In this document: positions 2,398-37,052 of the stretch, in pieces
Position numbering within the stretch: position 1 is the first letter of the stretch
Layout of the letters: every line of letters begins with the position of its first letter
Assembly (NCBI GenBank): GCA_030765365.1
Contig: JAVCCS010000092.1
Coordinates: 1 to 37,052, forward strand
Origin: Candidatus Theseobacter exili
Lineage (GTDB): Bacteria > Auribacterota > JACPWU01 > Theseobacterales > Theseobacteraceae
Direction: 5' to 3'
DNA length: 37,052 nucleotides
Position numbers and translations under genes: made by a program
Notes under the pieces: generated by a model
Seen by the model: only the letters and a program-made list of their open reading frames with translations
Told to the model about the DNA's origin: nothing
The model's database searches: none

Positions 2398-2408
2398 GAC
2401 CTGACCCC
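2385..2408 (-). repeat. Right terminal inverted repeat (TGTTAAATGTTAAGACCTGACCCC on +)
   Basis: Exact reverse complement of 1388..1411. Confidence 0.95.
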
Positions 2409-3607: not shown

Positions 3608-3610
3608 ATT

Positions 3611-3688: not shown

Positions 3689-3705
3689 ATCAAGTAATAT
3701 TTTTC

Positions 3706-3781: not shown

Positions 3782-3795
3782 ACCGAAAACATTTT

Positions 3796-5699
<1,904 letters not shown>

Positions 5700-5727
5700 C
5701 TTGCTTTACTTCCTTCCTTCTTATTAT

Positions 5728-6948: not shown

Positions 6949-7006
6949 GTAATGTCTCCTTCCATTTCTACACAAAAAGATTCATCTCAAAGAAAAATCT
7001 TGCCAT

Positions 7007-7034
7007 ACTATAGCACAAGTTTTTTTGATTTCAA
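7007..7034 (-). promoter_or_regulatory. Putative sigma70 promoter of the rpsB-tsf-pyrH-frr-tRNA operon
   Basis: TTGAAA, 16 nt spacer, TATAGT with an extended -10 TGn. Confidence 0.65.
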
Positions 7035-7070
7035 GGTAAAAATCCAATAATATTTGTCTATTTTCACATT

Positions 7071-7730: not shown

Positions 7731-9436
7731 AAGTTAAATTGTAATTTGTATATTTTTCGATATGACGGACAGGAATCCATTAATTCATCATGTGTACCAT
7801 GTCCAATAATTTTTCCATTACTTAAAACAATAATTGCGTCAGCACTTTGAACTGTTGATAAGCGGTGTGCAATAACAAGACACGTTCTCTGTTCCATAAG
7901 ATGTTCTATTGCCTCCTGAACAAGCCGTTCCGATTCGGTATCCAAAGCAGATGTTGCTTCGTCAAGAATCAGCACAGGAGGATCTTTCAAAATGGCACGG
8001 GCAATAGCAAGACGTTGTCTTTGCCCGCCTGACAGTTTCACTCCTTTTTCACCAACTACAGTATTATAACCATCCGGAGTCTCTTGTATAAATGAATGAG
8101 CGTTTGCAGCTTGGGCCGCTTTGAAGATCTCCTCGTCCAGACATTCCAGATTGCCGTACGAAATGTTATGTTTTATTGTATCATTAAATAGTATTGTTTC
8201 CTGAGTTACAATTCCTATCTGTTTTCTAAGAGACGCTAAACTAACATCTCTAATATCTAAGCCATCAACTAATATCCGGCCATTTGTTGGATCATAAAAT
8301 CTCGGGATAAGATTAGCAATGGTTGTTTTCCCTACCCCGCTTGGCCCTACAAGTGCGGTAACCTGACCTCGTTTCATTTGAAAATTTACTTTTTCAATTA
8401 CGGGAACAGTCGAATCTTCATAGCTAAAAGAAACGTCTTTAAAATCTATTGTTTTACTAAAAGCTGGTAAAATCTGTGCAGATTCGGTTTCCGGTACTGA
8501 CGTTTTTTCATCAATAATCTCAAATATCCTTCCACCAGCTGCTAAAGCCTGCTGAATAGTATTGTTTACTCGACTCAATTTTTTTACAGGTTCATAAAGA
8601 AGGAATAGCGCTCCCATAAAAGCAAGAAAAGTGGCCTTATCAAAATGTTTTGCACCATACCAAATAGCAAATGCAACTCCAACAGATGAAATCGCTTCGA
8701 TTATTGGCCTAACTGCTACAGAAGATTTTACAATTTCCATAGCATGCTTGAAAAGTTGTTTGTTTTCTACTTTGAATTTATCAATTTCATATTCCTCCAT
8801 GGCAAATGCTTTTACAATGCGTGCTCCTGTAAAAGTTTCATGCAGGATACTGGTAAGATCCGCCATTTTCGCCTGGGAAGAGAAACTTGCTTTACGAAGA
8901 CGCTTCCCGTACTTAATAATAGGCAAAAGAGTTACCGGAAAAACAAGCATGGATAATAAAGCCAGAACAGGATCCCAAATGAATACTGTCACAGCCAATC
9001 CTATAATGCATAGTGGCTGTTGAATTAAGTCTGTAACAATATTCGAAATTGAACTTTGAACAATTGCAACATCATTTGTAATCCTGCTAATTAGTTGTCC
9101 GGTTCTGCGATCTGCAAAAAAATCTACCGATAGTGTTTGTATATGTGAGTAAAGATCATTTCTAATATCCATTATTGCACGTTGTCCTACCCAATTCATT
9201 AAGTATGCCCTTCCATAATCAAACAACCCGCGAAAAAGAAATGTAAATACTATCAGTAGAGAAATCGGGTTTAAAAATGTACTGTATTTATAATCAAAGC
9301 CTGTTTTTAGTACATATCTAAGAATCCATGCCACCGCTGTGTTAAGCGCAGAAAAAAGCACCATAAAGACCATGGCCCAAATAATACGAGATCGATATGG
9401 TTTTATCTTCATAAGAAGCCTGTGGTAAGTATTCAT
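7727..9436 (-). CDS. msbA: Lipid A export ABC transporter
   Basis: N-terminal TM domain, GPSGVGKTT, LSGGQRQR, LILDEATSALD; directly follows lpxB. Confidence 0.9.
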   Translation of the reverse strand: MNTYHRLLMKIKPYRSRIIWAMVFMVLFSALNTAVAWILRYVLKTGFDYKYSTFLNPISLLIVFTFLFRGLFDYGRAYLMNWVGQRAIMDIRNDLYSHIQTLSVDFFADRRTGQLISRITNDVAIVQSSISNIVTDLIQQPLCIIGLAVTVFIWDPVLALLSMLVFPVTLLPIIKYGKRLRKASFSSQAKMADLTSILHETFTGARIVKAFAMEEYEIDKFKVENKQLFKHAMEIVKSSVAVRPIIEAISSVGVAFAIWYGAKHFDKATFLAFMGALFLLYEPVKKLSRVNNTIQQALAAGGRIFEIIDEKTSVPETESAQILPAFSKTIDFKDVSFSYEDSTVPVIEKVNFQMKRGQVTALVGPSGVGKTTIANLIPRFYDPTNGRILVDGLDIRDVSLASLRKQIGIVTQETILFNDTIKHNISYGNLECLDEEIFKAAQAANAHSFIQETPDGYNTVVGEKGVKLSGGQRQRLAIARAILKDPPVLILDEATSALDTESERLVQEAIEHLMEQRTCLVIAHRLSTVQSADAIIVLSNGKIIGHGTHDELMDSCPSYRKIYKLQFNL

Positions 9437-10593
9437 TATGAGATAGTCTCTCCTTGTCTTAAAAATTTATGCAATGATTCTGCAGCACACACAGCAGCGC
9501 CTTTTCCACCAAGTTTTTTTCTAATTTCTGATAACTCCAATATCACTTTTTCTCTGCGCTTCCGATTTTCAATCAAATCTATAGCTTCTTCAGCAATCTT
9601 TTCAGGACAAGCTTTTCCCTGAAGAAACTCAGGATATACAGATTTTCCTGCAATGATATTTGCCATTGCAATAAATGGTACTTTCACAAGAAACCTCGCA
9701 ATAATCCATGTAAAAGGATTCACCTTGTATACGACCACTGACGGAACCCTTGATAAAGCCGCCTGAACTGTTACAGTCCCTGATGCTAAAAGAGCTATCG
9801 TTGAATTTGCAAGTGTTTCTTCAACTTTACCAGATACAACTTTAGCTCTGAAGCAACGTTTTTTAATTATATCCATTATTATCGGGCGTACTTCATCCGA
9901 AGCACAAGGTATTAAAAATTGCATCTCAGGATTATGACTCATCATTATTTCAGCAGTTTTCACGATCACCGGCAGATTTCTTCTTACTTCACCTTTACGG
10001 CTTCCGGGCAACAAAGAAACTGTAAGTCTATTTTCACTATCCGATGGTCTTTTGTCACATTTCCCTTCTCTCTCTCCTTCATTGCTTTCATCCAAAAGAG
10101 GATGGCCGACAAAGACCGAATCAACTCCATGTTCTTTATAGAAATCAGCTTCAAAAGGGAATATGACCATCATGAGATCAATATCACGTGCAATAGCCTT
10201 AATACGATGCCTCCCCCAGGCCCATACCTGCGGGCTTATATAATACACAACAGGAATCCCCAATTTCTTTGCAACTTTTGCTATTCGCAAATTAAAACCG
10301 GGAAAATCGACCAACATAAGTACATCAGGCCTGTTCTGTTTAAGCATAGCTACCAAACGATTAAAAACACGCTTAAACTTAGGATATTTCTTAAGTACTT
10401 CAAAAAATCCTACAACAGCAATTCCAGTTATATCTTCGTCAATAACAGCGCCTGCCTGAAGCATTTGCTCGCCGCCTATGCCTCTAAAAGAAACGTCGGG
10501 ATCAATCCTTTTCATCGCCATGATCAAACCAGATGCATGGAGATCTCCGGATTTTTCACCGGCAACAACCATAACAGATTTTATTAAGCCCAT
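9436..10593 (-). CDS. lpxB: Lipid A disaccharide synthase
   Basis: AGEKSGDLHA, VDFPGFNL, YYISPQVWAW, VGHPL, LLPGSRKGE. Confidence 0.97.
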   Translation of the reverse strand: MGLIKSVMVVAGEKSGDLHASGLIMAMKRIDPDVSFRGIGGEQMLQAGAVIDEDITGIAVVGFFEVLKKYPKFKRVFNRLVAMLKQNRPDVLMLVDFPGFNLRIAKVAKKLGIPVVYYISPQVWAWGRHRIKAIARDIDLMMVIFPFEADFYKEHGVDSVFVGHPLLDESNEGEREGKCDKRPSDSENRLTVSLLPGSRKGEVRRNLPVIVKTAEIMMSHNPEMQFLIPCASDEVRPIIMDIIKKRCFRAKVVSGKVEETLANSTIALLASGTVTVQAALSRVPSVVVYKVNPFTWIIARFLVKVPFIAMANIIAGKSVYPEFLQGKACPEKIAEEAIDLIENRKRREKVILELSEIRKKLGGKGAAVCAAESLHKFLRQGETIS

Positions 10594-11510
10594 AGCCTGT
10601 TCCTGCTTTGTTCTATAATTTGCATAGCTACTTCGAGGGCCCTGGTACCATGTGTAGCAGTAACAAGCGGCTCTTTTTCGTTAACGACACACTCTATGAA
10701 ATGCTGAATTTCGAGAACTATTGGTTCTCCGGGAGCAGAGGGAATTTCTTTATGAAGTATCTTTTCATCTTCTTTCCAATAAATCAATCCGTGACGTTTC
10801 ATATAATCAAGAGATATATACACATCGTCTTTGAAAACCCTGATCTTACGCATATTTTCCGGTGACACCCTGCTGGCAGTTATGTTCGCAACACAACCAT
10901 TGGCAAATTCCAACCTGGCATTTGCAATATCCTCGGTTTTACTTAGCACATTAACTCCAACAGCACGTATCTCCTGAACCTCGGATTTGACTAATTCCAA
11001 GATTATATCGATATCGTGTATCATTAAATCCATTACAACATCGACATCTGTCCCTCTTGGGTTATACATACAAAGCCTGTGACATTCAATAAACTTGGGA
11101 TTTCGCAAATGTTTGTCCAGAGTTTTAAAAGCTGGATTAAACCGCTCAATATGACCTACCTGAAGTATCAAACCCCGTTTCCTGGACGTGCTGGAAATTT
11201 CCTGTGCCTGTTCAAGGGTTTCCATAAAAGGTTTCTCCACAAGAAGATGAACATCCCTTTGAATCAAAGCCCTGGCCACATCATAATGTAATGTTGTAGG
11301 AACGGAAATGCTTGCAACATCAATGGGGCCCGGAACAGCCGCAAGATCTGTGTAAGCTACAGTTCCAAGACGCTCAGCAATCTCGCGAGCCCTCGAAGCA
11401 TCAGTGTCAACTACTCCTGCCAAATGTACTCCTTTAAGCTGACTGTAAACTCTTGCATGCTCTTTACCGAGATGTCCTACACCAACAACAATAGCATTAA
11501 TTTTTTTCAT
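10584..11510 (-). CDS. gnnA: Gfo/Idh/MocA oxidoreductase, probable UDP-GlcNAc 3-dehydrogenase (GnnA-like)
   Basis: VVGVGHLGKEHAR, LLVEKP, QVGHIERFNP, VVMDLMIHDIDI; located between lpxI and lpxB. Start moved to ATG 11510. Confidence 0.72.
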   Translation of the reverse strand: MKKINAIVVGVGHLGKEHARVYSQLKGVHLAGVVDTDASRAREIAERLGTVAYTDLAAVPGPIDVASISVPTTLHYDVARALIQRDVHLLVEKPFMETLEQAQEISSTSRKRGLILQVGHIERFNPAFKTLDKHLRNPKFIECHRLCMYNPRGTDVDVVMDLMIHDIDIILELVKSEVQEIRAVGVNVLSKTEDIANARLEFANGCVANITASRVSPENMRKIRVFKDDVYISLDYMKRHGLIYWKEDEKILHKEIPSAPGEPIVLEIQHFIECVVNEKEPLVTATHGTRALEVAMQIIEQSRNRLWA

Positions 11511-12336
11511 TTCCGTTACCTTTATATGTCTGAGCAACAATACAAAGCCCTTCCTGATTAGCACGATCTAAAACTTCATTTTTATCAAGAAAAAGGGTCA
11601 TATCGGCTTCAACAGCTAGTACTGCTGCTTTTGTTGACTTAAGAATATCAATAGTATCGATTCCGATAATCGGCACATCAAAACGCATATTCTGATCAGG
11701 TTTTGCTACTTTAACGACAACTATCCGTTCTCTACCTATCTTTGCAGCTCTTCTGATGGCTTCATCAGTTCCCTCTACAGCTTCAACTGCAAGAACAACA
11801 CCGTTTTTTACAATAACTGTCTGACCAATATCCATTCCAGCAATACCCTTGGCCATTTCCAAACCAAACAAAATATCATTTTTTTGCTGTTTATTTGGTT
11901 TTTTACGGGTTAAAACGCCTGATTGTGGCATTGAATTTTTCATGTATTTTGTAGAATCAACCAGGCTAATGCCTTCCTTTTGCAGTTCTTCGGCAATTGC
12001 TCCTAGAACCGTATCGGCATTTCTGTTTTTTAATCGTCCAAGCAGTTTTACACTACGCCAATCCAGCTTCAGATTCTTCAACATCAGAGTAGGCGGAATC
12101 TGACCAGCCATCACCACTTCATTTATACCTTCTGATTTAAAAAAACGTATCAGTCGATTCAATTGGCCAATACTAAACCATTCGATACGATCTACCAGTT
12201 TAGCAAGTTCCGAATCGGTAATATCATGAAATGCGGCGGCTGCTATGTAGTCAACCCCTTCCTCCTTTGCAGCTTTAGCAAAATAAAGCGGAAAAGTTCG
12301 GTTTCCTGAAATCAAACCGACTTTCAAAAGACTCAT
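11497..12336 (-). CDS. lpxI: UDP-2,3-diacylglucosamine hydrolase LpxI (DUF1009)
   Basis: MDIGQTV, LAVEAVEGTD, VKVAKPDQNMRFDVP. Confidence 0.93.
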   Translation of the reverse strand: MSLLKVGLISGNRTFPLYFAKAAKEEGVDYIAAAAFHDITDSELAKLVDRIEWFSIGQLNRLIRFFKSEGINEVVMAGQIPPTLMLKNLKLDWRSVKLLGRLKNRNADTVLGAIAEELQKEGISLVDSTKYMKNSMPQSGVLTRKKPNKQQKNDILFGLEMAKGIAGMDIGQTVIVKNGVVLAVEAVEGTDEAIRRAAKIGRERIVVVKVAKPDQNMRFDVPIIGIDTIDILKSTKAAVLAVEADMTLFLDKNEVLDRANQEGLCIVAQTYKGNGNEKN

Positions 12337-13118
12337 CGAGAGATTCCCCTTTGGGATCCAAGAATAAAGTTTAATAAATGCTCGATTTCAGCACTGGAGG
12401 GAATCTCTTTGCGTACAATTTCAATTGCGTTGGAGATTGCATGCTTCGAATGGAATAATATCTTGAAAGCTTTCTTAATATCTTTACGTATTTCCATGGG
12501 AATGCCATTACGCTTCATGCCAATAGCGTTGATCGATTTCACCTTTACAGGATGTCCGTCAACCATAGAAAAGGGCGGAACGTCCTGCACTACTTTTGAA
12601 CAACCACCAATTATCGAAAAAGTTCCTACTCTGCAAAACTGATGAACTGCGCTTAATCCACCTAAAACAGCCCTGTCTTCGATTACAACATGTCCGGCCA
12701 ATGTCGCAGCATTAGCCATTATCACATAATCTCCAACCTCACAATTATGAGCGACATGGCAGTAAGCCATTAATAAACAATTTTCTCCAACACAAGTTTC
12801 AGTTCCTTCAGAAGTACCACGATTTATTGTTACGCATTCCCGGACAACAGTATTACTGCCAATACTTACTAAGCTCTTCTCCCCCTTATATTTGAGGTCT
12901 TGAGAATCCGTTCCAATTGAGGCGCCTGAATAGATTTTTGTATTTTTCCCCAACTCAACATCTTTGCATATATATACATGGGGTCCCAGATATGAACCTT
13001 TACCAATAGTCACACCTGGACCAATAACGGTATATGGCCCAATATGAACATTATCTTCTATCCTGGCACTAGCATCGATAACTGCAGTTGGATGTATCAT
13101 TTTTTCGCTAAAACTCAT
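12333..13118 (-). CDS. lpxA: UDP-N-acetylglucosamine acyltransferase
   Basis: [44 protein letters not shown]. Confidence 0.97.
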
Positions 13119-13567
13119 TTTTTTTCCTTCGATACCAGAGAAAACATCAGGTCTGCTTCTGTAACCAAAATACCATCTACGAAAGCCTGTCCTTTAACTG
13201 AACCTGTACGACCTCTAAGTTTTGTCACCTCAATTTCAAGTCTAAGCTGATCACCCGGCACTACAGGTTTTCTAAATTTTACGTTGTTAATAGACATGAA
13301 ATAAGCCAACTTTTCCGGTTGATCCTTAAGCATCATGACGCCGCCAACCTGTGCCATAGCTTCAAGGATTAAAACTCCGGGCATTATTGGATGCCCTGGG
13401 AAATGGCCATTAAAAAAGTCCTCGTTTGCAGTTACATTCTTGATTCCTACAGCTCGCTTTTCATCCTCCAGTTCAATAATGCGGTCAACCAAAAGGAATG
13501 GATAGCGGTGTGGCAAAACCTTTTGTATGTCAACTACGTCCATTAATACATTCTGCTTTTCAATCAT
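13115..13567 (-). CDS. fabZ: 3-hydroxyacyl-ACP dehydratase
   Basis: [30 protein letters not shown]. Confidence 0.98.
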
Positions 13568-13582
13568 AGCATGTCTCCTTAA

Positions 13583-14422
13583 TTATCGGCAATATTGGGA
13601 CTCTATTTCTTTTGCAAGTTTTACATTCATATCATGTCCAGATTTTATTGCAATGATATGACATTTGACAAATGACCCTAAAAGAAACATGTCTCCCATA
13701 ATATCGAGAATTTTATGCCTTACACACTCATCATCAAAGCGAAGTCTTTCTTTACTGAGAATAGCCTCATCTAAAATTACTACAGCATTATCCAGGCTGC
13801 CTCCTTTGATAAGTTCGCGTTTCATCAAATCTTCTACTTCATCATAAAAGCCAAAAGTTCTTGATGGAGCAATCTCCTTTTCAAAAGTATCCTGTGTTAT
13901 TACAAAACTCTGATACTGATCTTTCAGGAAAGTGTTTTTATACGAGAGAACGAATGAAACCTGGAAAACATCACAGGGCAAAGCAACAAGACTTACAGAA
14001 TTTTCCTGAATCCACAGCGGACTTGTAAGTGTTACTATTTTCTTTGGACTCAAATACTCCTGAATACCAGCAGCTTTGATCATGTCAACAAAAGGCAAAG
14101 AACTTCCATCACCAACAGGAGGTTCACTTGCATTCATTTCAATAATCAGGTTATCAATTCCAAATCCTGTCAATGAAGCCAATACATGTTCAACTGTATG
14201 AACTTTTATTTTGTTTTCACTGATAGTTGTTCCCCTGGCAACACTCACTACGTTTTCCAGACAAGGCGTTACTGAAGGAGATCCTTCAATATCAATTCTA
14301 ACAAATTTTACACCTGAGTTTTCCGGAGCTGGACGAAATGTAATTTTCGCCTTGTCTCCAGTATGAAGGGCGAAACCCTCGTATGTAACCGCCTTTTTAA
14401 TCGTTCTCTGATTGTCTATCAT
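13583..14422 (-). CDS. lpxC: UDP-3-O-acyl-GlcNAc deacetylase
   Basis: QRTI, TVEHVL, DGSS, SRTFGF, GGSLDNA, RHKILD, KSGH. Start moved to ATG 14422. Confidence 0.97.
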
Positions 14423-15458
14423 CTTCCAGGAGACTCCTGACTTTTTTTTCAAGTTCTTTTACACGCTTACTCAATTCGGGCATTCTCTGTAATTGAGCAT
14501 ATTGTCTTTTCCATTTTCTAATTGGGACCGCCGGATATCCAAACATAGTTTCACCCGATTTTATGTTCTTACTGACACCGCTTTTAGCTGCAACAATTGC
14601 CCCATCTCCAATTTCTATATGTCCAACAATACCAACTTGGCCTGCAAGTATTACATTCTTTCCAATTCTTGTACTTCCTGATATTCCAACCTGGGCAACA
14701 ATAATAGAATCGGCTCCAATCGTTACATTATGAGCAATTTGAACAAGGTTATCAATTTTTGAGCCCCTGCCTATGGTTGTTTTATTAAAACGAGCCCTGT
14801 CAATTGACACATTTGAGCCTATTTCAACATCATCCCCGATATCAACAATACCAACCTGTGGTATTTTCTTATGCTTACCTTTATTATCAGTCACATACCC
14901 GAATCCATCACTGCCTATTACGGTTCCACTATGAATGATGACATTGTTGCCAACTAAAGTATCGCAAAGAATTGTCACATTCGGATAAATAAGACAACCC
15001 TTGCCAATTTTAACATTATGTCCCAAATAGGATCCTGCACAAACTTTTGCACCTGAACCAATACTCACTCTCTCCTCAATTACCACGTTAGGACCTACAG
15101 CAACATCATCTGCCAGTTCTACTGTTTTATGAATAACTGAAGTAGGATGAATCCCTTCCAAAAGAAAAGCTTTCTGTAAGCTAAAAAGCTCCACAACCTT
15201 AGCAAATGCAATTGAAGGGTCCTCACAGTAAATCACAGATATTGCATCTGGCGGTTCTATTCCTTCCGGTAACAGAACCGCAGATGCATCTGTTTCACTA
15301 AGAAGAGATTCGTAACGGGTATTGGCAAGAAAAGTAATTTCGCCTTTTTGTGCCTCTCGGATCCCGGAAACACCCCTAATAGAAGTTTCTGCTTCACCAA
15401 CAAGCTGTCCACCAACTACCTGGGCAATTTCCGCAAGCGTTCTTTTCACGGAAAACAT
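14397..15458 (-). CDS. lpxD: UDP-3-O-acylglucosamine N-acyltransferase
   Basis: [32 protein letters not shown], hexapeptide repeats. Confidence 0.97.
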
Positions 15459-15474
15459 TTCTCCCCACCTGTTA

Positions 15475-16005
15475 CTATTTTTTATCTTTTTCAGAATACT
15501 GCTTGTTAAGCACCTTTATTATTTCATCAGTCAAATCGTAAGAATCGACTTTATAAAGCAATGCTTTTTCATTAAAAATGAATGTGTAGCCATTCTTCTT
15601 GCCGTATTCTTCAATGATAATCCTAATATTGTCAAATATTTCACGAAGCAATTTATCTCTTTCATTACGAAGTTCTGTACGAATTTGCTGATCAAAATCT
15701 TTAAGATCTTTTATCTTATCATCAATCACAAGCTGCTTTTCCTGACTTGCGGATTCACTTAAAAGCTCACCTTCCTCTTTAAGGCGCTTAATTTCAGAAA
15801 CCATTGTGTCTCTTTCTTGTGCCTTCTGGCGTCCTGATTCCTTCAGTTTTGAATCTTCAGATTTTGTATATTCGTATTCATTGAATACTTTTTCAACATC
15901 TACATAACCCATTTTAGTCTCAGCACCAATTACAGATTTTCCTGCAGCAAGACAAATAACACATGTAAAAACCACAACCAAAATACAACTAACCTTCTTA
16001 ACCAT
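15475..16005 (-). CDS. skp: Periplasmic chaperone Skp/OmpH
   Basis: Signal peptide, [11 protein letters not shown], coiled coil, DLTDEII; located between bamA and lpxD. Confidence 0.92.
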
Positions 16006-16043
16006 TTCATTCCTCCTTGTTAATTACTGCTTTAATTAAAATA

Positions 16044-18344
16044 TTAAAATGAATAGCCTACATTAAAATGAAATCTTTCATTATAATCAACAAATTCGTC
16101 CTTTTTTATTGGATAACCCATATCTAAACGTATAGGACCAATTGGAAGATCTAACCTTACACCAAATCCAGCACCGCTTTTTAAGTCGTCTAAAGCAAAA
16201 TCATCAAACTCTCTCCATACATTTCCTGTATCATAAAATACAGCCCCACGTACTTTTGTGATAATTGGAAATGTAATTTCAGAACTTCCTACAACCATTA
16301 ACCTACCACCGATAGGTTCTCCAAATTCATCTTTAGGGCCAACATCCCTATATTTAAAACCACGCAATGTGTTGGCACCACCCAGAAAGTACCTTTCAAA
16401 TATAGGTACTCTATCAGAATCACCATAATTATTCACATAACCACCCTGTAAACTTAATCTTAGGATCAGGTTGAGAGGTAATCCAATATACAGACTGTTC
16501 TTTGAATATAATTTATAAAAATCCCTGTCAGCGCCAAAAATTCCGCCAGCAAGTTCAGCACTAACATTGTTCAACATTCCCCTTGAAGGAACGAAAATAT
16601 GGTTTCTTGTATCTCTAGTAAAGCCAATCGTCATACTGCTTACTGTGTTGCGTCCTTCTTCAATTTTAATCTCATCGGATGCATCTTCAGAAACGTTATA
16701 AATTTCGGTTTCTTCTAGTTTATACATCAAATCACCACGCAGGAACTCAGCGATTCTCCAACCCAAACGCACATCGCCGCCTGTTCTTTTTTCATTATAT
16801 ACATCACTCAAGTATTCACTTTGTCTTCTAAAGAGATCAAAACCAAATGAAAGAGGTTTTTCTAAAAACCAGGGTTCAGTCCATGACAAAATAAAATCCT
16901 GCCGTTCTTTACCAAACTGTGTACGAAAACGCAGTTTTTGTCCATCTCCTGTAAAAGTAGGGAAATTTTTCCAATCAAAATTCTTCTGCGTAATTTCAAC
17001 AAATCCAATCAATTTATCAATAGAACTAAACCCAACACCAAAACCGAGTTCCCCAGTTTTGCCTTCTTCAACCTCAATTACCAAATCTTTTTTATCAACC
17101 TCCTCGGTTGGTTCAATATCAATATACACTGACTGGAAAAAACCAAGATTTAACAGACGCTCCTGGCTTCTCTGAACTCTTACACCATCACAAATATCTC
17201 CAGGCTCCAATTTCAGCTCTCTACGAATCACCACGCTGCGTGTCTTTGTATTTCCTTCAACACGAATCTCATTAACATAGGAAATATCTCCTTCTGTTAT
17301 CTGAAACTTGATATTCATAGCTTCAGATGAAGTATCAAGATATGTCTCAACTCTTACTCTGACGTCAATATATCCTTTAGCGTAATAATATCTTTTTATA
17401 TACGATTGAGCCCTTCGCAAACTATCCGGTGTAAATATTTTTCCAGTCTGAAGCCCAACACCCTTCATTATATCAACTGAAGGAAAAGTCTCATTCCCGG
17501 AAATCGAGGTTTCTCCAACATAATACCTTTTGCCTTCATCAACTGTAATAGTAATGAATATTTTGCGTCCGTCATCAGACAGTTCTGTTTTAATATCCTC
17601 AACTTTCACATCAAGAAACCCATACATACGGAAATATTCTCGAACTCTGTCTGTGTCTTTATCAAATTCATATGGATTGAATTTTCCTGAAGAAAATAAA
17701 GTGGATTTTTTGGTTTTCATTATTTTAAGAAGCGATTTGGCTTTAATTGATTTGTTGCCAATAAAAGAAATCTTCTTAACTTTAGCACGCTGATTTTCTT
17801 TCACAGAAAATAGAACAATGGCATCTCCATGCGCCACATCCATACTTATTTTGTAATCTACTTCTGCTTTGTAATACCCTTTTTCTCTATAATATTGAAG
17901 AAGTGCTTCACGATCTTTCTGAACTTGAGATTCGCTAAGAATTTTACCAACCGCAGACTCAACTTTCTTCAGTAGTTTTTTATCTTTCAGCGCATGATTT
18001 CCTTCAACAAGGATCTCTTTTACAACCGGGTTCTCGGCAACTAATATTGTAAGAATTACTCCATCGTAAGTCTCTTCCATATCAATACTAATATTTGAGA
18101 AAAAGCCAAGCTTATACAACCGTTTGATATCTTCATTAAGATCTCGCGGTTTTAATGGACTTCCTACTTTAGTTTTGATTTTTGCAAGGATTACATTGCT
18201 GCTGACTGTTTGGTTACCTTGAATCTGAATATCTTTGACAACAGTTCCTTCCAAATCGGCAAATGAATATGAGATCGGGAATCCTGCTCCCATAACCAAG
18301 AATACTGCTAACAACCACAACACCGCTTTTTTACATATATCCAT
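16044..18344 (-). CDS. bamA: Outer membrane protein assembly factor BamA
   Basis: POTRA repeats (IQIQGN, GNTKTR..VIRRE), LRGF motif, PIGPIRLD, C-terminal FNVGYSF. Confidence 0.97.
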   Translation of the reverse strand: MDICKKAVLWLLAVFLVMGAGFPISYSFADLEGTVVKDIQIQGNQTVSSNVILAKIKTKVGSPLKPRDLNEDIKRLYKLGFFSNISIDMEETYDGVILTILVAENPVVKEILVEGNHALKDKKLLKKVESAVGKILSESQVQKDREALLQYYREKGYYKAEVDYKISMDVAHGDAIVLFSVKENQRAKVKKISFIGNKSIKAKSLLKIMKTKKSTLFSSGKFNPYEFDKDTDRVREYFRMYGFLDVKVEDIKTELSDDGRKIFITITVDEGKRYYVGETSISGNETFPSVDIMKGVGLQTGKIFTPDSLRRAQSYIKRYYYAKGYIDVRVRVETYLDTSSEAMNIKFQITEGDISYVNEIRVEGNTKTRSVVIRRELKLEPGDICDGVRVQRSQERLLNLGFFQSVYIDIEPTEEVDKKDLVIEVEEGKTGELGFGVGFSSIDKLIGFVEITQKNFDWKNFPTFTGDGQKLRFRTQFGKERQDFILSWTEPWFLEKPLSFGFDLFRRQSEYLSDVYNEKRTGGDVRLGWRIAEFLRGDLMYKLEETEIYNVSEDASDEIKIEEGRNTVSSMTIGFTRDTRNHIFVPSRGMLNNVSAELAGGIFGADRDFYKLYSKNSLYIGLPLNLILRLSLQGGYVNNYGDSDRVPIFERYFLGGANTLRGFKYRDVGPKDEFGEPIGGRLMVVGSSEITFPIITKVRGAVFYDTGNVWREFDDFALDDLKSGAGFGVRLDLPIGPIRLDMGYPIKKDEFVDYNERFHFNVGYSF

Positions 18345-30562: not shown

Positions 30563-31132
30563 TTATAAAGGTCTAGATGAAAGAACCTTTTCTACTCTCT
30601 TATCTCTTTTCCACATACCAAGTTTATTTTTTTTAGCCTCGTTTTCCAGCCTTTTAAATTCTGCAGAATATTTGAGATTAGGCTTAATTGTAAGAACGCT
30701 TGCAAATCCCCTTTTAACAAGTTCCCTGTTAACGAATACGTCAGCTACGAACACATGCGCTAAAAGTCTTCCGTATTTGTCTCTTTTCTTAACATCAAAT
30801 TCCAGTCTTACTTTTTTTCCTTTTACCATCCGCATATTTTCATAAAAGGCCTCTTCAGCATAAGGCTCAGGATCTTTAATCCATTGATTTCCATGCCGGC
30901 GACGCTTTTCCGGTGTATCTATACCCAGATACCGGACTCTTTCTCCGCCTTGTATTTTAATTGTATCTCCGTCAACAACCCAGGTCACAAAGTATTCGCC
31001 AGGTTTTGTTTTAACAGGTTTACTTTCTTGCGGAATAGCTATTGTTAATATTCGTCCAGTAGCAAAGACCAAACACAACAATGCTGCAGAACCAACAGCA
31101 AAATATTTCAAACCACGCTTTACTTTTTCCAT
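30563..31132 (-). CDS. Thermonuclease (SNase-like), exported or membrane-anchored
   Basis: N-terminal hydrophobic segment; VVDGDT, VRYLGIDTPE, DKYGRLLA, LVKRGFA, AKKNKLGMW. Confidence 0.95.
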   Translation of the reverse strand: MEKVKRGLKYFAVGSAALLCLVFATGRILTIAIPQESKPVKTKPGEYFVTWVVDGDTIKIQGGERVRYLGIDTPEKRRRHGNQWIKDPEPYAEEAFYENMRMVKGKKVRLEFDVKKRDKYGRLLAHVFVADVFVNRELVKRGFASVLTIKPNLKYSAEFKRLENEAKKNKLGMWKRDKRVEKVLSSRPL

Positions 31133-31184
31133 TTCGTCTTCTCCAATATGTTCTTGTATGTTTTTCCGCTAATTCTCGATTATG

Positions 31185-31213
31185 TTTGCACCTGTAAAGA
31201 AATCAAATATAAT
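31185..31213 (+). promoter_or_regulatory. Putative promoter of ppx
   Basis: TTGCAC, 16 nt spacer, TATAAT; AAGGA RBS before ATG 31236. Confidence 0.55.
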
Positions 31214-31235
31214 TGTACATTCAAAGGATGAATAA

Positions 31236-32159
31236 ATGACTAAAAAAAACTGCTCAATTGATATTGGAACAAATTCTGTAAGATTTCTCGTAACTGAACT
31301 GAAAAATGATCGCCTAATAATTTTGGACAAAGGCGGGCGCATAACACGCTTGGGAGAAGGCGTCAGCGGTACGGGAAACTTAATTCCCGACGCATCAAAA
31401 AGAACTCTGGAATATCTGCGCAGCTTGCGCAACCATATACTGAAATTTGGGGAAATACATATTACCGTTGCCGCAACTGAAGCAGTCAGAATTGCGAAAA
31501 ATGCTTCCCCTTTCCTTGATGAAACCGGAAAGATACTGGAAACCACACCAAAAATCCTATCAGCAGCTGAAGAAGCATATTTATCATTTCTCGGAGCTTC
31601 TGATTGCATGGAAAAATCCGATAAAACGCTTTTTTTTGATCTTGGAGGAGGAAGCACGGAACTGATAGGAGTTTCTGCGGGGACTGTAAAATGGAATAAA
31701 AGTTTAAAAATTGGTTCAGTTACTGCTTTTGAAGATTTTCTAAAGTCTGACCCTCCATCGCCAAATGAGATGAACGCATTAAAGAAACACTCAATTAAAG
31801 TGTTCAAATCAAGTCTGCTTAAAAGCTGGCAGCCGGATTCAGTTATAGGCATTGCCGGAACAGTAACAACACTGGCGGCAATCAGTCTTGGACTTAAACA
31901 ATACAATTCTGACAAGGTTCATAAACATGTCATAACCATAACTGAACTTAAAAGCATTTTTGAAAGGTTATCCGGAATTACCGCAAACGAACGACGGAAT
32001 ATTCCCGGTGTACCTCCCGGCCGTGAAGATATAATTGTGACGGGATGCTTAATCACACTTGAATTACTTAAATTATCAAATGCTAAAAAATTCATTGTTA
32101 GTGACAGAGGGCTGCTTTACGGCCTTGCAAAAGAAGCTTTTAGTTCCAATTCATTCTAA
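31236..32159 (+). CDS. ppx: Ppx/GppA phosphatase (short form without HD domain)
   Basis: IDIGTNSVR, ITRLGEG, ATEAVR, EEAYLSF, DLGGGSTE, GREDII, SDRGLLYG. Confidence 0.93.
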   Translation: MTKKNCSIDIGTNSVRFLVTELKNDRLIILDKGGRITRLGEGVSGTGNLIPDASKRTLEYLRSLRNHILKFGEIHITVAATEAVRIAKNASPFLDETGKILETTPKILSAAEEAYLSFLGASDCMEKSDKTLFFDLGGGSTELIGVSAGTVKWNKSLKIGSVTAFEDFLKSDPPSPNEMNALKKHSIKVFKSSLLKSWQPDSVIGIAGTVTTLAAISLGLKQYNSDKVHKHVITITELKSIFERLSGITANERRNIPGVPPGREDIIVTGCLITLELLKLSNAKKFIVSDRGLLYGLAKEAFSSNSF

Positions 32160-32215
32160 AACTCTACTTTTTTTTAGATTTTTTACTTTTCACCCCTTAT
32201 TGTGCTCCACTGCTC

Positions 32216-32244
32216 TTGCGCTTTTTTGAAATATATGGTATAAG
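32216..32244 (+). promoter_or_regulatory. Putative promoter of the giant ORF
   Basis: TTGCGC, 17 nt spacer, TATAAG with a TGn extension. Confidence 0.4.
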
Positions 32245-32323
32245 TATTATTGCTAATGCGACAGATAGAACTATTAATGTTATAACATTATATTATGTAT
32301 GACCTAAAAAAGATGGATAAACC

Positions 32324-35300
32324 ATGTCTATACATTTTTTTGCTCAAAAAAGGCGAGGCTATATTAATAGTACAGCTTTGCTTATTACTGCAGCCATGGT
32401 ATTCACTCAATGCATAATCCCCTATAAAAGTTTATCGGCATTAACAGGTACTCCCCATGCAAATTCAGCTAAAATTCCAGCGTTTGATCCAGCCTCTATT
32501 CCCGCTGCTTTCTGTCACATCGGTGAACAGTTCGGCAATGACCCTGTCCCATCCTTTTTTCTCATAAAAGACCTTCACTGTCATTTTGAAGCCCAAATGA
32601 ATATTTCCAGGATAATTGATGTAATATCAGGCAAGTACTCCGTTAACCTGGTCTTGGTCGAGGGCGCAACAGGGTTGATAGACACCTCACTGTTTGCCGC
32701 ATTTCCCGACAATAAGGTCAAGCGCCAGGTTGCAAGTGAGTTTGTAAAAAAAGGCCAGGTAACCGGTCCGGAGTTTCTGTCTATTACCCGTGAGAAAGAG
32801 CCTCCGCTTCAACTCTACGGTCTGGAAGACGAATCTGTTTACCTTGATAATCTCAAAGCGTTCAGGAACACGCTAAAAGAACGTGAATCAACGGACCTCA
32901 TTATTGGCCTGATGATGGAAGCGCTTGATAGAATAAAATCAAATTGTTACCCTAAACCACTGCTTAAACTGGACCAGATGATAACTGACCAGGAACTCGG
33001 TCAAATTTCCTTCATCGAGCTATCAAGACATATTATTACCGATGTCGAAAAACTGCTTGGCAGTTCTGCAATAGACACATATCCCAACACAAAAATCCTG
33101 GCTCAATCACTTGAAGAACAGGACCATTTCAATATTGACATGCTGAAAAAGGAACGTACTGCGCTTCTAGAAGAACTCGAACAGTCTCTCGTTAAGGAAG
33201 ACCTTGCAAAGCTTGTTAAACAAAGTCTTGCTTTCCGACTTGGAAGAATAACTGCTGCGGATTTTTTTACAAGTCTTGAGGAAATGATTCCTGATGAAAT
33301 GAAAGACAAGGCAAAAAGAAACAATCCAAATTTATTCAGATATATACTCGTTCTCAGGCTCCAGTCAGAAATAGATAACACATCCCTCATGGATGAAATA
33401 GAAGAGCTGGGTACAAAGCTGAAAAAAGAATTATTCACTTCACCCCTGGAGCACCAGGTTGATGACACTTCTAAAATCATACACGTGCTCAGGAAGCTTT
33501 TTCACCTGGAAGTTAACCGTGATGAATTGTCATTTTTCCAACAAAATGAGTCCAAATTCCAATACCCGGCTCTTAAAGCCATTTTAGATCTACTGGCCAA
33601 AGAAACCGATGCTGAAATCCCTGCCCTTATGAAAGAAAAAGATTTCGCACAAATCGCAGACCGTTCAATAAATTCTGCAACAGGTTTTTACAGCGCAGCC
33701 ATCAGACGTGACAATGTTTTAATTGAAAACGCACTTAGCAAAATGAAAGAAGAAAAGGCTTCTTCTTCAATAATGCTGTCCGGAGGATTTCACACACTTG
33801 GCATTACCCGTATCCTTAGAGAAAAGCAGAAATCCTATGTCGTAATTACTCCTATGATTACTACTGTTTCAGAAAACACTCCTTACCAGGCAATTATGCT
33901 GGACGACCGCCTTGACGCATATATTTCAGGTCAAAACAATGCTCTGGCTTCAATGTCTAACTTCAGCAACTTTTTTTTTAATCAGCTTGTTGCCTTAGAG
34001 ATTCGTGCTGAAATGGCCGACGAAATGGTAAGTGAATATCTTTCCACGCAGGACGATGACGTAGAGGTGCTGTTTAAAAAATGGCAGGCGGACGCTGCTA
34101 AAAAGAAAGTCAGCATGGAAACTCTTGAAGCAATAGACAAACTTCGCCGTGCTGTCACAAAAGCAATTACAGTCCGGGGACCGCCTGCTCTTTCTAACGA
34201 TGTCATTGAAAAACTTGTTGCACCAGGCGGCCTGACAGCAGAAATGACTCTTGCCTACCTTGAGGAAAGTGTTAAGACAAATCCCTCAAAGGAAAACACT
34301 GCTGCTTTACAATTCGCAAAAAGTCTTGTTCCTGAATCTGAGGGAGCAGATCCGGAAGAGGGAAACATTTCAATAGGCACTGTTGAAAATTTTGAAGCAA
34401 ACGTAAACATTGAATCGCATCTAGACCTATTCGATAAGGTGGTTGGTCAATATCACAATAATCCAGAAAATAATCCAACTAATATTGTAGAAATCAAAGA
34501 CGCAGACGGACGTGTACTTCTGCAGGAAAACAACGGAGCAATTGCACTGTACGGAAAGGCAATCATTGGCTCTGCTAAAGGACAAAGCAAAAATTATAAA
34601 GCTTTTCATGATCGCAATATTAAATTCATAAGAGCTAACCTATCACCTGAAGCTCAAAATTTCCTGCGTGAACTTGCGGCCATGGAAACTGAATTAGAAG
34701 CTGACGCCAGGAAAAAAACCGGTGCAAAATTGACTTATTTAGAACGAGACCGATTGTTTAGAGCACTAAACAGTGCCCGTTTTGTTATTCTTAAGGCCCC
34801 ATCAACTATATTAACTACCGAAGTGTCAGAAGATAATCCAATTTGCCAAGCTTATCTTCATTCAGGCAAAGGAACTCCTGCTTCAAAAAACACTCCAAGC
34901 ATTTATTCCACAGGAATGGTTATCGGCGCCCTTTCCCGGGAACGGTCTGCCTTTACAAATGCAATGGTTCATGAGCTTTGGCACCTGGCAGACCTGTCTG
35001 AAGGAAAGCCTTTAACTGCCGAAAAAGAAAAGGAAGCCAGAGCTGTCGCAAGAAAATTCACACCGGGTGATTCTTCAAAAAACATACAAGCTGGAGAGCC
35101 TCTGCTAGACCATATTTTATCAGACATAATGCTTGAAACCCTCGCCGCAAGCCTCCCTTTCGACTCTCGCAAGGCTTTTGGCGACAGAGTTAAATCTCTG
35201 CGCAGAATGGGGAAAGCATATACACTGGATACAATAAGGAACTTAAGTGCTGAAAATCCTGAAGAACTTGTTGCATTTGCAGAAATGATTCGTGATGTAC

Positions 35301-37052
35301 CAGATACTTTACCGGTACCGGCTATTTTTGAACTTCCTGATGTGGATAATAAAATCTACTTTCCCGAATTTGTCGGTGAGTTTGGTGAGTTTATCGCAAC
35401 CTTTCTTGAAGAACATAAATTTGTTGTTGACGGTCAACCTCTACAGCCGGAAGATTCAAAAATTTTGAAAACTATTATCATAGATATAATAAAGGCAGGA
35501 GGAAGAAATTTCGGGTGGAACAGGCTTTCAATAGTACGGCTTGTTCAGCTAATGTACGATCCAAGAATAAATCCTGTTGTTGTAGACCTCATCAAGCTAT
35601 ACAAAGGTGTAGGCGGTGTTGGTTTTGTAGTTGAGGGAATAGATACAACAAAAAAGGCTACCCGTGCAGAATATGCAAAACACCTAAAAGAAACACGGGG
35701 ACGCCTTGCTGAACTTTTTCATGCCTTGTCTCTTCAGGTCGGACATTCGACACCGCTGGAGATTGCTTCTTTAAGCCTCACTGTCCGTGAGGTAGACAAA
35801 TCCAGCGCTGAACATAGAAAGGCGCGTGCTGAAATAGACGCTCTTTTTGAATCAATTCCTGAGGATTCACCCGCAAAACCATTATTAAGCGAATTTAAGG
35901 ACTGGTACAGTTATCAGAATGTTGATAGAGAAGGCGGCATAGTTGCATGGATGAAAAAAGAAGCCAAAAAGAAACTGGTGCAACTTGCAAACAGCAGATG
36001 GCGAGGACGCTGGCCGTCGGCACTCAGCGCAGTTCCCAGCGGAACATTCAGCCAGATGTGGGATAAAGACTTAACTTTCGCCTTTACAATTCCGCATCAG
36101 CTCATGGAAGCATGGGTACAGCACATGCATCAACAGGAACTTGGGGATGTCAGGAGAGAAGCAGGAAGGCAGGCCAAGACCAAAGTATCAGACATTAAAA
36201 GGGCGGTTAGCAGGGAAGCCCAGCTGGAAGCCAGGCGCAGAATAAATAAGGAAGGCCTTACCACCCCGTTCCAGAATTTAAAAGAACAAATATTTCAAGA
36301 GAAAATGAAAGAAAAAGCTCTAGATATCGTTACAGAAGAAAATGCGGAAAGAAAGATAATCAGCGGCACTTCAACCCCTGAAGCAGAACTTGTCCTGCAT
36401 TATTTTGATGAAATAAACATGGGCCTTTACCAGAATTTCTTCAATAAGCAGGTAGAGTATTATGAATCAAGAATTAGAAGGGCTCTTGAAGCTGACCAGG
36501 ACCTGGCAGGTCTTTCCCTGGAAAAATTTAAGATTTTTTTAGTTGATTTTGGCGAAGAACGACTTGTTCTTGATCATGACGCCCGATTCTCTGACCCTAA
36601 TAGAGAATGGACACGCAGAACACTTGCTGCAAATCCGTTTAACCGCAGCAATTTACCTGAAAATATTAAAGAAGCACTGCCGCAAACCACTGAATCGGAT
36701 GCGGCTTTAGTCAATCTTCGCAGTCTTGTATCGGGCGATGATACTTTACAGAATGCAATGGCAAAAGTTGAAGATGATATGGAAACAGCAAAAGATGAAT
36801 TTCAGAAAAGCATCCTGGATTACCTTGGATTAACCATTGATGACTCTGAACTTATGACCAGAACAAAAGATGGCGAAAGTGTTGGATGCGGTTTTTCATT
36901 GCGCGACCTGTTTTTCCTCAGGTTTAAAAATCAGCGCTCTATAATACTTGAAGAGGCAAGAAAATCTGGAACAGCTGTTTTGCAGGAAGCAATAAACAAG
37001 TCCGCCAGTCGTATAATAACCAGGATTGCTTCACAGCAGGACAACCCGGATC
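32324..37052 (+). CDS. Very large exported multidomain protein (>1576 aa, runs off the window end); not in the ORF track
   Basis: Frame read manually from ATG 32324 to the window end with no stop codon. Starts MSIHFFAQKRRGYINSTALLITAAMVFTQCII. Motifs: IKDLHCHFEAQMNI, VLVEGA, TGPEF, LYGLED, AIRRDNVL, GGFHTLG, SYVVITP, HELWH. Confidence 0.93.
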   Translation, partial: MSIHFFAQKRRGYINSTALLITAAMVFTQCIIPYKSLSALTGTPHANSAKIPAFDPASIPAAFCHIGEQFGNDPVPSFFLIKDLHCHFEAQMNISRIIDVISGKYSVNLVLVEGATGLIDTSLFAAFPDNKVKRQVASEFVKKGQVTGPEFLSITREKEPPLQLYGLEDESVYLDNLKAFRNTLKERESTDLIIGLMMEALDRIKSNCYPKPLLKLDQMITDQELGQISFIELSRHIITDVEKLLGSSAIDTYPNTKILAQSLEEQDHFNIDMLKKERTALLEELEQSLVKEDLAKLVKQSLAFRLGRITAADFFTSLEEMIPDEMKDKAKRNNPNLFRYILVLRLQSEIDNTSLMDEIEELGTKLKKELFTSPLEHQVDDTSKIIHVLRKLFHLEVNRDELSFFQQNESKFQYPALKAILDLLAKETDAEIPALMKEKDFAQIADRSINSATGFYSAAIRRDNVLIENALSKMKEEKASSSIMLSGGFHTLGITRILREKQKSYVVITPMITTVSENTPYQAIMLDDRLDAYISGQNNALASMSNFSNFFFNQLVALEIRAEMADEMVSEYLSTQDDDVEVLFKKWQADAAKKKVSMETLEAIDKLRRAVTKAITVRGPPALSNDVIEKLVAPGGLTAEMTLAYLEESVKTNPSKENTAALQFAKSLVPESEGADPEEGNISIGTVENFEANVNIESHLDLFDKVVGQYHNNPENNPTNIVEIKDADGRVLLQENNGAIALYGKAIIGSAKGQSKNYKAFHDRNIKFIRANLSPEAQNFLRELAAMETELEADARKKTGAKLTYLERDRLFRALNSARFVILKAPSTILTTEVSEDNPICQAYLHSGKGTPASKNTPSIYSTGMVIGALSRERSAFTNAMVHELWHLADLSEGKPLTAEKEKEARAVARKFTPGDSSKNIQAGEPLLDHILSDIMLETLAASLPFDSRKAFGDRVKSLRRMGKAYTLDTIRNLSAENPEELVAFAEMIRDVPDTLPVPAIFELPDVDNKIYFPEFVGEFGEFIATFLEEHKFVVDGQPLQPEDSKILKTIIIDIIKAGGRNFGWNRLSIVRLVQLMYDPRINPVVVDLIKLYKGVGGVGFVVEGIDTTKKATRAEYAKHLKETRGRLAELFHALSLQVGHSTPLEIASLSLTVREVDKSSAEHRKARAEIDALFESIPEDSPAKPLLSEFKDWYSYQNVDREGGIVAWMKKEAKKKLVQLANSRWRGRWPSALSAVPSGTFSQMWDKDLTFAFTIPHQLMEAWVQHMHQQELGDVRREAGRQAKTKVSDIKRAVSREAQLEARRRINKEGLTTPFQNLKEQIFQEKMKEKALDIVTEENAERKIISGTSTPEAELVLHYFDEINMGLYQNFFNKQVEYYESRIRRALEADQDLAGLSLEKFKIFLVDFGEERLVLDHDARFSDPNREWTRRTLAANPFNRSNLPENIKEALPQTTESDAALVNLRSLVSGDDTLQNAMAKVEDDMETAKDEFQKSILDYLGLTIDDSELMTRTKDGESVGCGFSLRDLFFLRFKNQRSIILEEARKSGTAVLQEAINKSASRIITRIASQQDNPD

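Follow-up and report, generated by a model that had tools for sequence, protein, structure and literature searches.

The locus and its open frame

The DNA analysed here, called the window below, is contig JAVCCS010000092.1 of Candidatus Theseobacter exili, with a length of 37,052 nucleotides. The window is an entire contig (C142) of a 2.76-Mb assembly that consists of 334 contigs and is 88% complete. The subject of our analysis is a giant gene at its right-hand end, whose product (P0001) begins with a signal-peptide-like segment followed by a domain, here called the head, that stands at the front of many large and otherwise dissimilar proteins. A structural model and a set of invariant residues place the head in the TIKI/erythromycin-esterase/ChaN superfamily. 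The best explanation of the whole, to which we give even chances, is that the frame encodes the first 1576 residues of a protein from a very large family in Omnitrophota-like bacteria, in which a signal peptide and a head are followed by variable cargo and a tail. The gene and its parts are the following:

32160..32323, + strand: AT-rich spacer of 164 nt between the Ppx/GppA gene (31236-32159) and the giant gene
32324..37051, + strand: 5' part of the giant gene, 1576 codons (P0001), frame open to the contig end
32324..32440, + strand: signal-peptide-like N-terminus, residues 1-39, with the n-region K9 R10 R11 and a hydrophobic run at residues 14-32
32492..33919, + strand: head domain, residues 57-532 (about 475 residues), with a TIKI/erythromycin-esterase/ChaN-like alpha/beta core and a long helical insert
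33920..34363, + strand: head extension, residues 533 to about 680, common only to the paralog on contig C138 and database protein P0002
34364..37051, + strand: cargo, residues 681-1576, incomplete; orphan sequence with no transmembrane-like segment and no tandem repeats
34466..35323, + strand: possible divergent HxGxG-HExxH module, residues 715-1000, with H846-S-G-K-G850 (34859-34873) and H883-E-L-W-H887 (34970-34984)

The frame is uninterrupted up to the window end, as a preliminary description of this DNA had stated: no stop occurs across the 1576 codons at 38-42% G+C, and an in-frame TAA (32318-32320) lies just ahead of the first ATG (32324). Because the window is a whole contig, the truncation of the gene reflects the contig end and has no biological cause. 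Eighteen short, low-depth contig pieces (151-616 nt) from four public salt-lake metagenome runs match positions 33000-37052 with zero differences. None of these pieces passes the window end, no RNA dataset is among the listed holders, and no contig end of the assembly has an exact overlap of 15-200 nt with the end of C142. The extension of the contig that the preliminary description had called for was therefore not obtained. Its claim that the gene has a promoter candidate of its own was not borne out either. A scan of 31900-32500 for sigma-70-type consensus sites gave none on the + strand and two on the - strand, against a shuffle mean of 2.6, and the AT-rich spacer in front of the gene contains no promoter-like or terminator-like site on the + strand.

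Copies and distribution of the head

The first ~670 residues of P0001 match 18 other places in its own genome, which gives 19 copies of the head. All 19 are N-terminal in their frame; eight belong to closed frames of 661-5103 aa, a maximum that no other frame in the assembly exceeds, and nine further copies are in frames cut by contig ends. The family makes up at least 5.9% of the DNA of this genome. A HMMER search of 1.84 billion cluster representatives found the head in 7,748 of them at E<=1e-3 and in 1,713 at E<=1e-30. The 150 matches listed are proteins of 510-5568 aa whose head begins between residues 32 and 99, P0032 being matched through a later stretch. The head is also present in 17 of 41 related genomes, with 2-52 matches each and in frames of up to 24,620 aa, and in 20 of the 79 sampled species of its own phylum, where its distribution is all-or-none by family: it is present in all sampled members of eight families and absent from 15 others. 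The source labels of the head-bearing relatives are Omnitrophota, Chlamydiota, Elusimicrobia and Auribacterota, and the record of Candidatus Taenariivivens baikalensis holds 51 matched head pieces. These counts and labels agree with the preliminary description, which had judged the head to be conserved and had placed it at the start of many giant proteins of Omnitrophota- and Elusimicrobiota-like bacteria; homologs of the head clearly do occur on large variable proteins. The DnaB encoded in the window has its best named matches (50-55%) mostly in Omnitrophota-labelled metagenome-assembled genomes (MAGs), and the assigned phylum, sampled at just 79 species, is an odd fit with these labels of the nearest DnaB matches, so that the organism could belong either to Omnitrophota proper or to a small sister group.

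Short genes that consist of the head alone also exist. Seven of them encode 516-570 aa (G010:C2, G009:C1, G006:C42, G012:C76, G080:C6, G035:C103 and G042:C69; L126-L132), two MAGs have a single head copy each in the form of a head-only gene of 550-563 aa, and Atlas clusters of 59-129 head-only 'hypothetical proteins' carry the Omnitrophota label. In several genomes the head-only genes are the best-scoring copies, and there is no tail in or next to them. No conserved neighbours were found around eight short head genes, namely the seven of 516-570 aa and the 695-aa gene on C93 in the own genome. One long family member (P0021, 4647 aa) has the source name 'radical SAM protein, partial [Chlamydiota bacterium]', which derives from one cargo domain and is an example of how annotation can hide the head family.

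Fold and predicted active site of the head

When 27 heads are aligned, 17 columns are invariant, and the motifs that the preliminary description had named (IxDxHC..AQ and others) coincide with them. The elements of the head are listed below, with the predicted local distance difference test (pLDDT) of the model given for the insert:

32570..32596, + strand: motif 1, D83-L-H85-C-H-F-E89-A-Q91; D83, H85 and Q91 invariant in 149/149 heads
32660..32674, + strand: motif 2, E113-G114-A-T-G117; E113 invariant, 28 residues past H85
32831..33751, + strand: helical insert of about 300 residues (model residues 111-417, which are residues 170-476); pLDDT mostly >90
33707..33793, + strand: motifs 3 and 4, R462-D463...G487-G488-F-H490; R462, G487, G488 and H490 invariant

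The AlphaFold2 model of the head, a check suggested along with the preliminary description and here based on the 27-head alignment, has a pLDDT of 89.9 and a predicted template modelling score (pTM) of 0.82. VIA, a structure aligner independent of Foldseek, was used to align it with 48,161 chains. The top five matches were EreC (Z 10.0), HopBA1 (10.0), Bcr136 (9.6), ChaN (9.1) and Bcr135 (9.0), each aligned over 156-180 residues. The next, unrelated chain had a Z of 7.4, and PMT (7.3) and RRSP (6.1) were also listed. The superfamily structures are 6XCQ (EreC), 2RAD/3B55 (Bcr135), 2QGM (Bcr136), 2G5G (ChaN), 5T09 (HopBA1) and 5W6L (RRSP), and their common core, according to the RRSP paper, is a parallel beta-sheet flanked by helices. 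As in Ere enzymes, a helical lobe is inserted between the two halves of the domain. The insert of the head appears in the model to lie at the place of the Ere 'minor lobe', but with its ~300 residues it is far larger than the four-helix minor lobe described for these enzymes.

The invariant residues provide the strongest argument for this placement. D83, H85, Q91, E113, R462 and H490 are invariant in all 149 heads, although these are only about 30% identical overall, and the distances from H85 to E113 and from R462 to H490 are both 28. The catalytic residues given in the EreC paper are E47, H50, E78, R261 and H289, with a distance of 28 both from H50 to E78 and from R261 to H289; those given in the RRSP paper are E3900, H3902, E3930, H4030 and R4001, with distances of 28 (H3902 to E3930) and 29 (R4001 to H4030). 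For Bcr135 the published catalytic pair is His-85/Glu-113. The acid-x-His/Glu/Arg/His series of the head thus matches EreC and RRSP by residue order and spacing, except that its first acid is Asp and not Glu. The head differs from the superfamily in this residue, in staying below every curated threshold and in its setting, as the domain always stands behind a signal peptide and is fused to the front of very long variable proteins.

In profile searches P0001 had no Pfam match at E<=1 and no NCBIfam match. PF04187 (ChaN, 'Tiki superfamily') was met below its cut-off in four of the 27 heads, with a best E of 6e-4, and at six places in the giant frames of relatives, four of which lie within head matches, over the C-terminal part of the head. 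PF01963 (TraB_PrgY_gumN) and PF05139 (Erythro_esteras) are not among the 25 families listed for the 27 heads. The head profile, searched against PDB sequences, found EF-hand-like noise in the helical insert only (best E 0.005).

By fold and motif, the head as modelled is a divergent member of the TIKI/erythromycin-esterase/ChaN superfamily that belongs to no curated family, and we hold both the family membership and the fold assignment with high confidence. Because the catalytic constellation and its spacing are invariant in 149/149 heads, we also predict that the head is likely to be an active hydrolase. The following results speak against these assignments. Foldseek, with the head model as query against the PDB, returned nothing at E<=1e-3, its output being helical-bundle noise with Bcr135 at rank 49, because the long helical part swamps the search. 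The VIA scores of 9-10 are just moderately above the background of 7-8 that is stated for the tool. No curated Pfam model reaches its cut-off for the head, and hhalign of the head profile with one canonical TraB protein of a relative gave a probability of 1.3%. Finally, ChaN and PMT are described in print as superfamily members that are not hydrolases.

Such non-enzymatic members (ChaN binds haem, and the C1/C2 region of PMT is inactive, according to the published descriptions) would suit an explanation in which the TIKI-fold head is a passive handle, that is, a non-catalytic secretion or docking signal, an envelope anchor or a clasp for the tail. A constant head and tail around free cargo do resemble carrier or sorting tags, and the helical insert could be an interaction surface. 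We consider a passive head decidedly unlikely, since the exact catalytic constellation is kept at canonical spacing in every one of the 149 heads, since the inactive PMT is reported to have lost the catalytic motif and since 475 residues are a large size for a mere tag. A hydrolase active site remains our preferred interpretation of the head.

Variable cargo and constant tail in the family

A count of the paralogs and of the diversity of their C-terminal parts, which the preliminary description had proposed, gave the 19 own-genome heads mentioned above and a diverse set of cargo. Paralogs carry metallophosphatase with GNAT and HAD domains, glucan phosphorylase with HATPase, PGK with FBPase, HATPase with kinases and PPDK, an EPSP-synthase-like domain or a dynein-type AAA domain, and 10 of the 16 paralogs scanned are without any Pfam domain. 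The cargo of 12 long database representatives includes PGM, PGK, transaldolase, radical SAM, ABC1 kinase, CofD and M48. The change from constant to variable sequence is abrupt. P0001 and the C138 protein, its closest paralog, are 50% identical to residue 669, and the C138 protein and P0002 are 68% identical to residue 671. Among the three, similarity is lost within ~20 residues at a sharp breakpoint near residues 680-690, and this sequence pattern would fit cargo replacement by recombination. Of the polymorphic effector system that the preliminary description had proposed, the constant head in front of variable, often enzymatic cargo and the sharp breakpoint therefore stand; a processing or export function of the head, an effector or predation role and an enzymatic cargo in this particular gene do not follow from these results.

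The family also has a C-terminal tail module (...SY-x-RA...-MA), which is present in seven ORFs (open reading frames) of the own genome, or in nine when a broader profile is used. All four closed head genes of at least 2,000 aa end in [MT]-[MA]-A, and the tail stands at the very C-terminus of 77 of 148 representatives. Searches of the tail against Pfam, PDB and PHROGs gave no match. Headless tail-bearing ORFs are all cut at their 5' end, with the exception of C23_7770-15743, which lies one in-frame TAG behind a head ORF. Contigs that bear a tail on a 5'-cut ORF include C138 (at its start), C224, C260, C182, C57, C163 and C164.

Several members of the family have unusual arrangements. At G000:C23:4542-15743 a head ORF (1057 aa) and a tail ORF (2658 aa) are in the same frame with the TAG at 7713-7715 between them, a junction that could reflect a disrupted gene, an error in sequencing or read-through of the stop. 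The head matches of two relatives contain one in-frame TAA each (G012:C17 and G042:C163). The head ORF of G000:C136 (6604-9864, - strand) is overlapped at its end by a 2209-aa ORF, and that of G000:C93 (2296-4380, - strand) by a 791-aa ORF, both of them on the same strand as the head, in another frame and cut by the contig end; these two junctions are frameshift-like. The head on C120 is without its front half (the first ~215 profile positions). On C138 the tail of a 5'-cut ORF (2-3070) is near-identical to that of the gene directly downstream (3441-17588), so that family genes stand in tandem there, and the 3' end that the window gene lacks might be found in this 5'-cut ORF.

N-terminal signal and location of the protein

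The signal-peptide-like N-terminus noted in the preliminary description is present in P0001, where K9 R10 R11 precede the hydrophobic residues 14-32 and a possible signal cleavage site follows after S-L-S-A39 (SLSA, then L). Signal-peptide-like here means a basic stretch with a hydrophobic run, judged from the sequence and not by SignalP. Segments of this kind, often with an AxA-like site after them, were found in 14 of 17 5'-complete paralogs; they were also found in 127 of 143 database representatives, compared with 475 of 1804 other genes of the same genome. In P0001 and in the family the head follows the segment directly, and residues 14-32 are the one hydrophobic segment in P0001. Most family members have no hydrophobic segments past the signal. 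A 4970-aa tail-bearing fragment (G000:C224:3907-18816) is unlike them in that it has five strongly hydrophobic segments at aa 1353-1624, and it contains 4 cysteines.

The composition of the family is acidic as well as cysteine-poor. Cysteine accounts for 0.33% of 54,107 family residues and for 1.27% of the rest of the proteome, a four-fold depletion, and in P0001 the low-cysteine composition persists through the cargo, with 2 Cys in the 1044 residues behind the head. The signal-like N-terminus, the cysteine depletion and the fact that there are mostly no further membrane segments suggest export by Sec, and the order of the N-terminal elements, with positive charges before the hydrophobic segment and AxA-like sites after it, suggests that the chain is oriented to the outside. 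On these features of the sequence the family protein is, on balance, probably exported. TolC-like genes and secretins are present in the genome, unlinked to the family genes, and a search of the genome for a C39 peptidase found none.

The cargo enzymes are normally cytoplasmic and ATP-using, which would also be compatible with a membrane-tethered scaffold, in which the N-terminal segment is an uncleaved anchor and head and cargo lie on the cytoplasmic face as fused metabolic or regulatory assemblies, in line with the 'membrane-anchored cytoplasmic domain' of Nielsen and Lui. Of the published giants of at least 10,000 aa, 46% were read in the preprint text as having transmembrane segments only and a cytoplasmic bulk (Nielsen and Lui 2026, bioRxiv 10.64898/2026.06.07.730766). 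We regard a cytoplasmic scaffold as improbable for the head family, given that positive charges precede the hydrophobic segment and AxA-like sites follow it and that the family is depleted in cysteine four-fold relative to the proteome. PrgY and TraB proteins are extracytoplasmic. Active TIKI proteases, as far as they are described in the papers concerned, act outside the cytoplasm of the producer, Tiki on Wnt and RRSP in the host. Export thus remains our preferred reading.

The cargo of the window gene

The preliminary description had called the more than 1000 residues behind the head of P0001 unrecognisable, and our searches led to the same result. The cargo has no Pfam or NCBIfam match and no relatives in its own genome or in a word-indexed search of 5.8 billion proteins (length classes 866-2758 and 2759-5000 aa). 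Six-frame searches across all of the 79 genomes that represent the phylum found no relative either, and the Atlas scores of the cargo do not exceed 0.84.

The front of the cargo may, however, contain a divergent copy of a module that recurs in the family. An HExxH in a common context stands between residues 600 and 1300 in 54 of 161 family proteins. A profile made from 36 of these found the module (TPG..Q...HPGRG...HE..HI...EE.FV) in 55 of 162 proteins, in most cases immediately after the head; examples are P0039 (aa 595-879), P0036 (aa 1106-1378) and P0098 (aa 3617-3907). In two of the eight members that were aligned, the first His is replaced by Y. The module had no match in Pfam, PDB or PHROGs, except for one member that matched PhageMetallopep at E 6e-4. 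In the lineage of the window it is rare, the putative window copy and one in G001 being the only ones among 13 genomes. The cargo of P0001 contains one HExxH, HELWH at 883-887, in a typical context. The seed hidden Markov model of the module does not detect P0001. Weak alignments were obtained with hhalign, where residues 843-891 align to the module with both motifs in register at a probability of 36%, and with MAFFT, where four invariant positions are co-linear at 14-20% identity. Judging from these alignments, there are about even odds that residues 715-1000 are a divergent copy of the recurrent module, and the cargo may thus begin with a divergent zincin-like HxGxG...HExxH module.

A decaying or mis-assembled gene, meaning a pseudogene remnant or a chimeric contig end whose orphan cargo is not real, would account for the lack of relatives of the cargo in any search. 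It would also be in line with the fragmented assembly (334 contigs) and with the paralogs that look interrupted, namely the TAG in C23, the overlapping follow-on ORFs at C136 and C93 and the half-head of C120. We give this explanation hardly any credence. The 1576 codons are stop-free at 38-42% G+C, pieces from four independent metagenome runs match without differences, the low cysteine content continues through the cargo, and four motifs are in register with the family module. Unique cargo is moreover usual in the family, as the 10 of 16 paralogs without a Pfam domain illustrate, and in the preprint of Nielsen and Lui (2026, bioRxiv 10.64898/2026.06.07.730766) 80% of long-protein clusters are given as singletons.

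A possible mechanism

As a member of the head family, the protein of the window gene would cross the inner membrane by Sec through the N-terminal signal. The head, as a hydrolase (peptidase or esterase), would then work in cis on its own polypeptide and would cut or release it at a family-specific site, for example the conserved C-terminal tail. Such a cut would free or position the cargo outside the cytoplasm. The end of the window gene and its tail would lie beyond the contig. The idea of cis action comes from the observation that the active site is intact in all of the 19-52 copies found per genome, even though genes for the head alone occur as well. We put it forward tentatively, with less than even prospects that the head acts on its own chain or tail. 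In its fullest form, the proposal is of an undescribed protein-handling system in which the TIKI-type hydrolase of each giant recognises the tail of the same chain and cuts or transfers it after Sec export, thereby releasing or anchoring strings of enzymes that are normally cytoplasmic, or handing them over, outside the cell and perhaps on the surface or in the interior of a host cell. We think that this full form is unlikely. If true, it would be a new secretion or processing principle and would explain how bacteria so small and so dependent on hosts put as much as a tenth of their coding capacity to use.

Three observations count against processing and export of this kind. Many cargo domains (PGK, PPDK, protein kinases, AAA ATPase) require ATP, which sits uneasily with an extracytoplasmic place. 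The tail of the window gene itself is absent from the contig. Of the candidate linker cutting motifs examined in ~45,000 cargo residues, GAR[LM]A occurs 0 times, and D.AM occurs 6 times, which is 0.13 per 1000 aa as compared with 0.054 in other proteins.

ATP-dependent cargo would make sense within another cell, and this favours an offensive multi-enzyme effector, a weapon or host-manipulation factor in which the head is one toxic activity, like RRSP in MARTX or like HopBA1, and the cargo is active with ATP in the cytoplasm of the target. The structural kin of the head include the injected HopBA1 (Z 10.0), the PMT toxin (7.3) and RRSP (6.1), secretins and TolC-like proteins are present in the genome, and the published view, as far as the papers go into it, takes Omnitrophota giants for predation or host-attack factors and the phylum for host-dependent. 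One weapon among many would, however, need no constant N-terminal placement on every protein and no pairing with a tail. Pfam scans of P0001 and its paralogs found no translocation module, RTX repeats or known delivery domain, no secretion genes adjoin the giant gene, and the organism has no known host. An effector of this type is therefore a doubtful explanation, and export with a head that acts on its own chain remains our preferred reading.

Comparison with known systems

Giant proteins of Omnitrophota are in print as 'multi-enzyme metabolic clusters' (Nielsen and Lui 2026, bioRxiv 10.64898/2026.06.07.730766) and as Archaeovorins (West-Roberts et al. 2023, bioRxiv 10.1101/2023.11.21.568195). 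The head family resembles the published Omnitrophota giants in the kind of host, in the strings of normally cytoplasmic enzymes (HATPase_c, GNAT, HAD, PGM) and in that signal peptides are common. The published giants, as the preprints describe them, are at least 10,000 or at least 30,000 aa long, with many transmembrane helices and SecA-DEAD or C39/S8 domains, while members of the head family range from ~650 to >24,000 aa and are defined by head and tail. The N-terminal regions of the published giants are described as generally without identifiable domains (10.64898/2026.06.07.730766), and Omnitrophota giants as poorly conserved and largely unannotated. In the main texts of both preprints, supplementary catalogues aside, the words 'erythromycin', 'Tiki' and 'TraB' do not occur, and our literature search found no paper joining Omnitrophota with 'erythromycin esterase' and no description of the head in print. 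We also considered a giant of the Archaeovorin or dockerin type (>30,000 aa, many transmembrane segments, SecA-DEAD, dockerin/TSP3) and saw no sign of it: none of these domains is found in the 1576 residues present, which have one hydrophobic segment, and the own-genome paralogs found do not exceed 5103 aa.

The family has several features in common with MARTX toxins, which are giant secreted proteins with several unrelated enzyme modules and a built-in cis protease, provided that the head does process its own chain as predicted. MARTX toxins use type I secretion and have RTX repeats and a cysteine protease domain that is activated by inositol hexakisphosphate; none of these features was found in Pfam scans of P0001 or its paralogs. 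The MARTX effector RRSP has, as published, the TIKI fold. By analogy only, the family is also similar to the cargo of type IX secretion and to type I substrates, as it combines an N-terminal signal with a conserved C-terminal module and is acidic and cysteine-poor. The type IX secretion system is a Bacteroidota system. Unlike in the substrates of either system, no known family matches the tail, and the genome lacks a C39 peptidase; a signal peptide would moreover be unexpected in type I substrates.

Polymorphic toxins (CdiA, Rhs, MafB) have the same constant N-terminal part, sharp recombination-like breakpoint and highly variable C-terminal part. The head family differs from them in that its cargo consists mostly of housekeeping-type enzymes and not of nucleases or deaminases, that no immunity genes were seen and that a constant tail follows the variable part.

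Thousands of giants share a head with a hydrolase fold and an active site that does not vary; together with the constant tail, it provides a first common handle on the family. The head defines the family, and the enzymatic step that it predicts could be assayed on a single recombinant domain; mutants of H85, E113, R462 and H490 make it testable whether the giants are cut and where they work. That proteins which are apparently exported and poor in cysteine carry ATP-dependent glycolytic and kinase modules is a puzzle with a direct bearing on the host interaction of ultra-small bacteria. What the window gene itself adds is limited. It comes from a salt-lake lineage, is truncated, has orphan cargo and extends the range of the family.

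Other features of the window

The remaining window is that of an ordinary diderm chromosome, with lipid A genes, BamA, Skp, DnaB and ribosomal proteins. A 248-aa ORF without a Pfam match (31169-31915, - strand) lies opposite to the well-supported Ppx/GppA gene and is probably not a gene. A staphylococcal-nuclease-like gene (30563-31132, - strand; 189 aa) lies upstream, two genes away from the giant gene. A 328-aa ORF with an IS200-like Y1 transposase domain (1392-2378, - strand) adjoins a heptosyltransferase gene. Ribosomal protein S2 (5728-6975, - strand) is unusually long at 415 aa, with the S2 domain at residues 18-233 and a C-terminal extension of ~180 aa.

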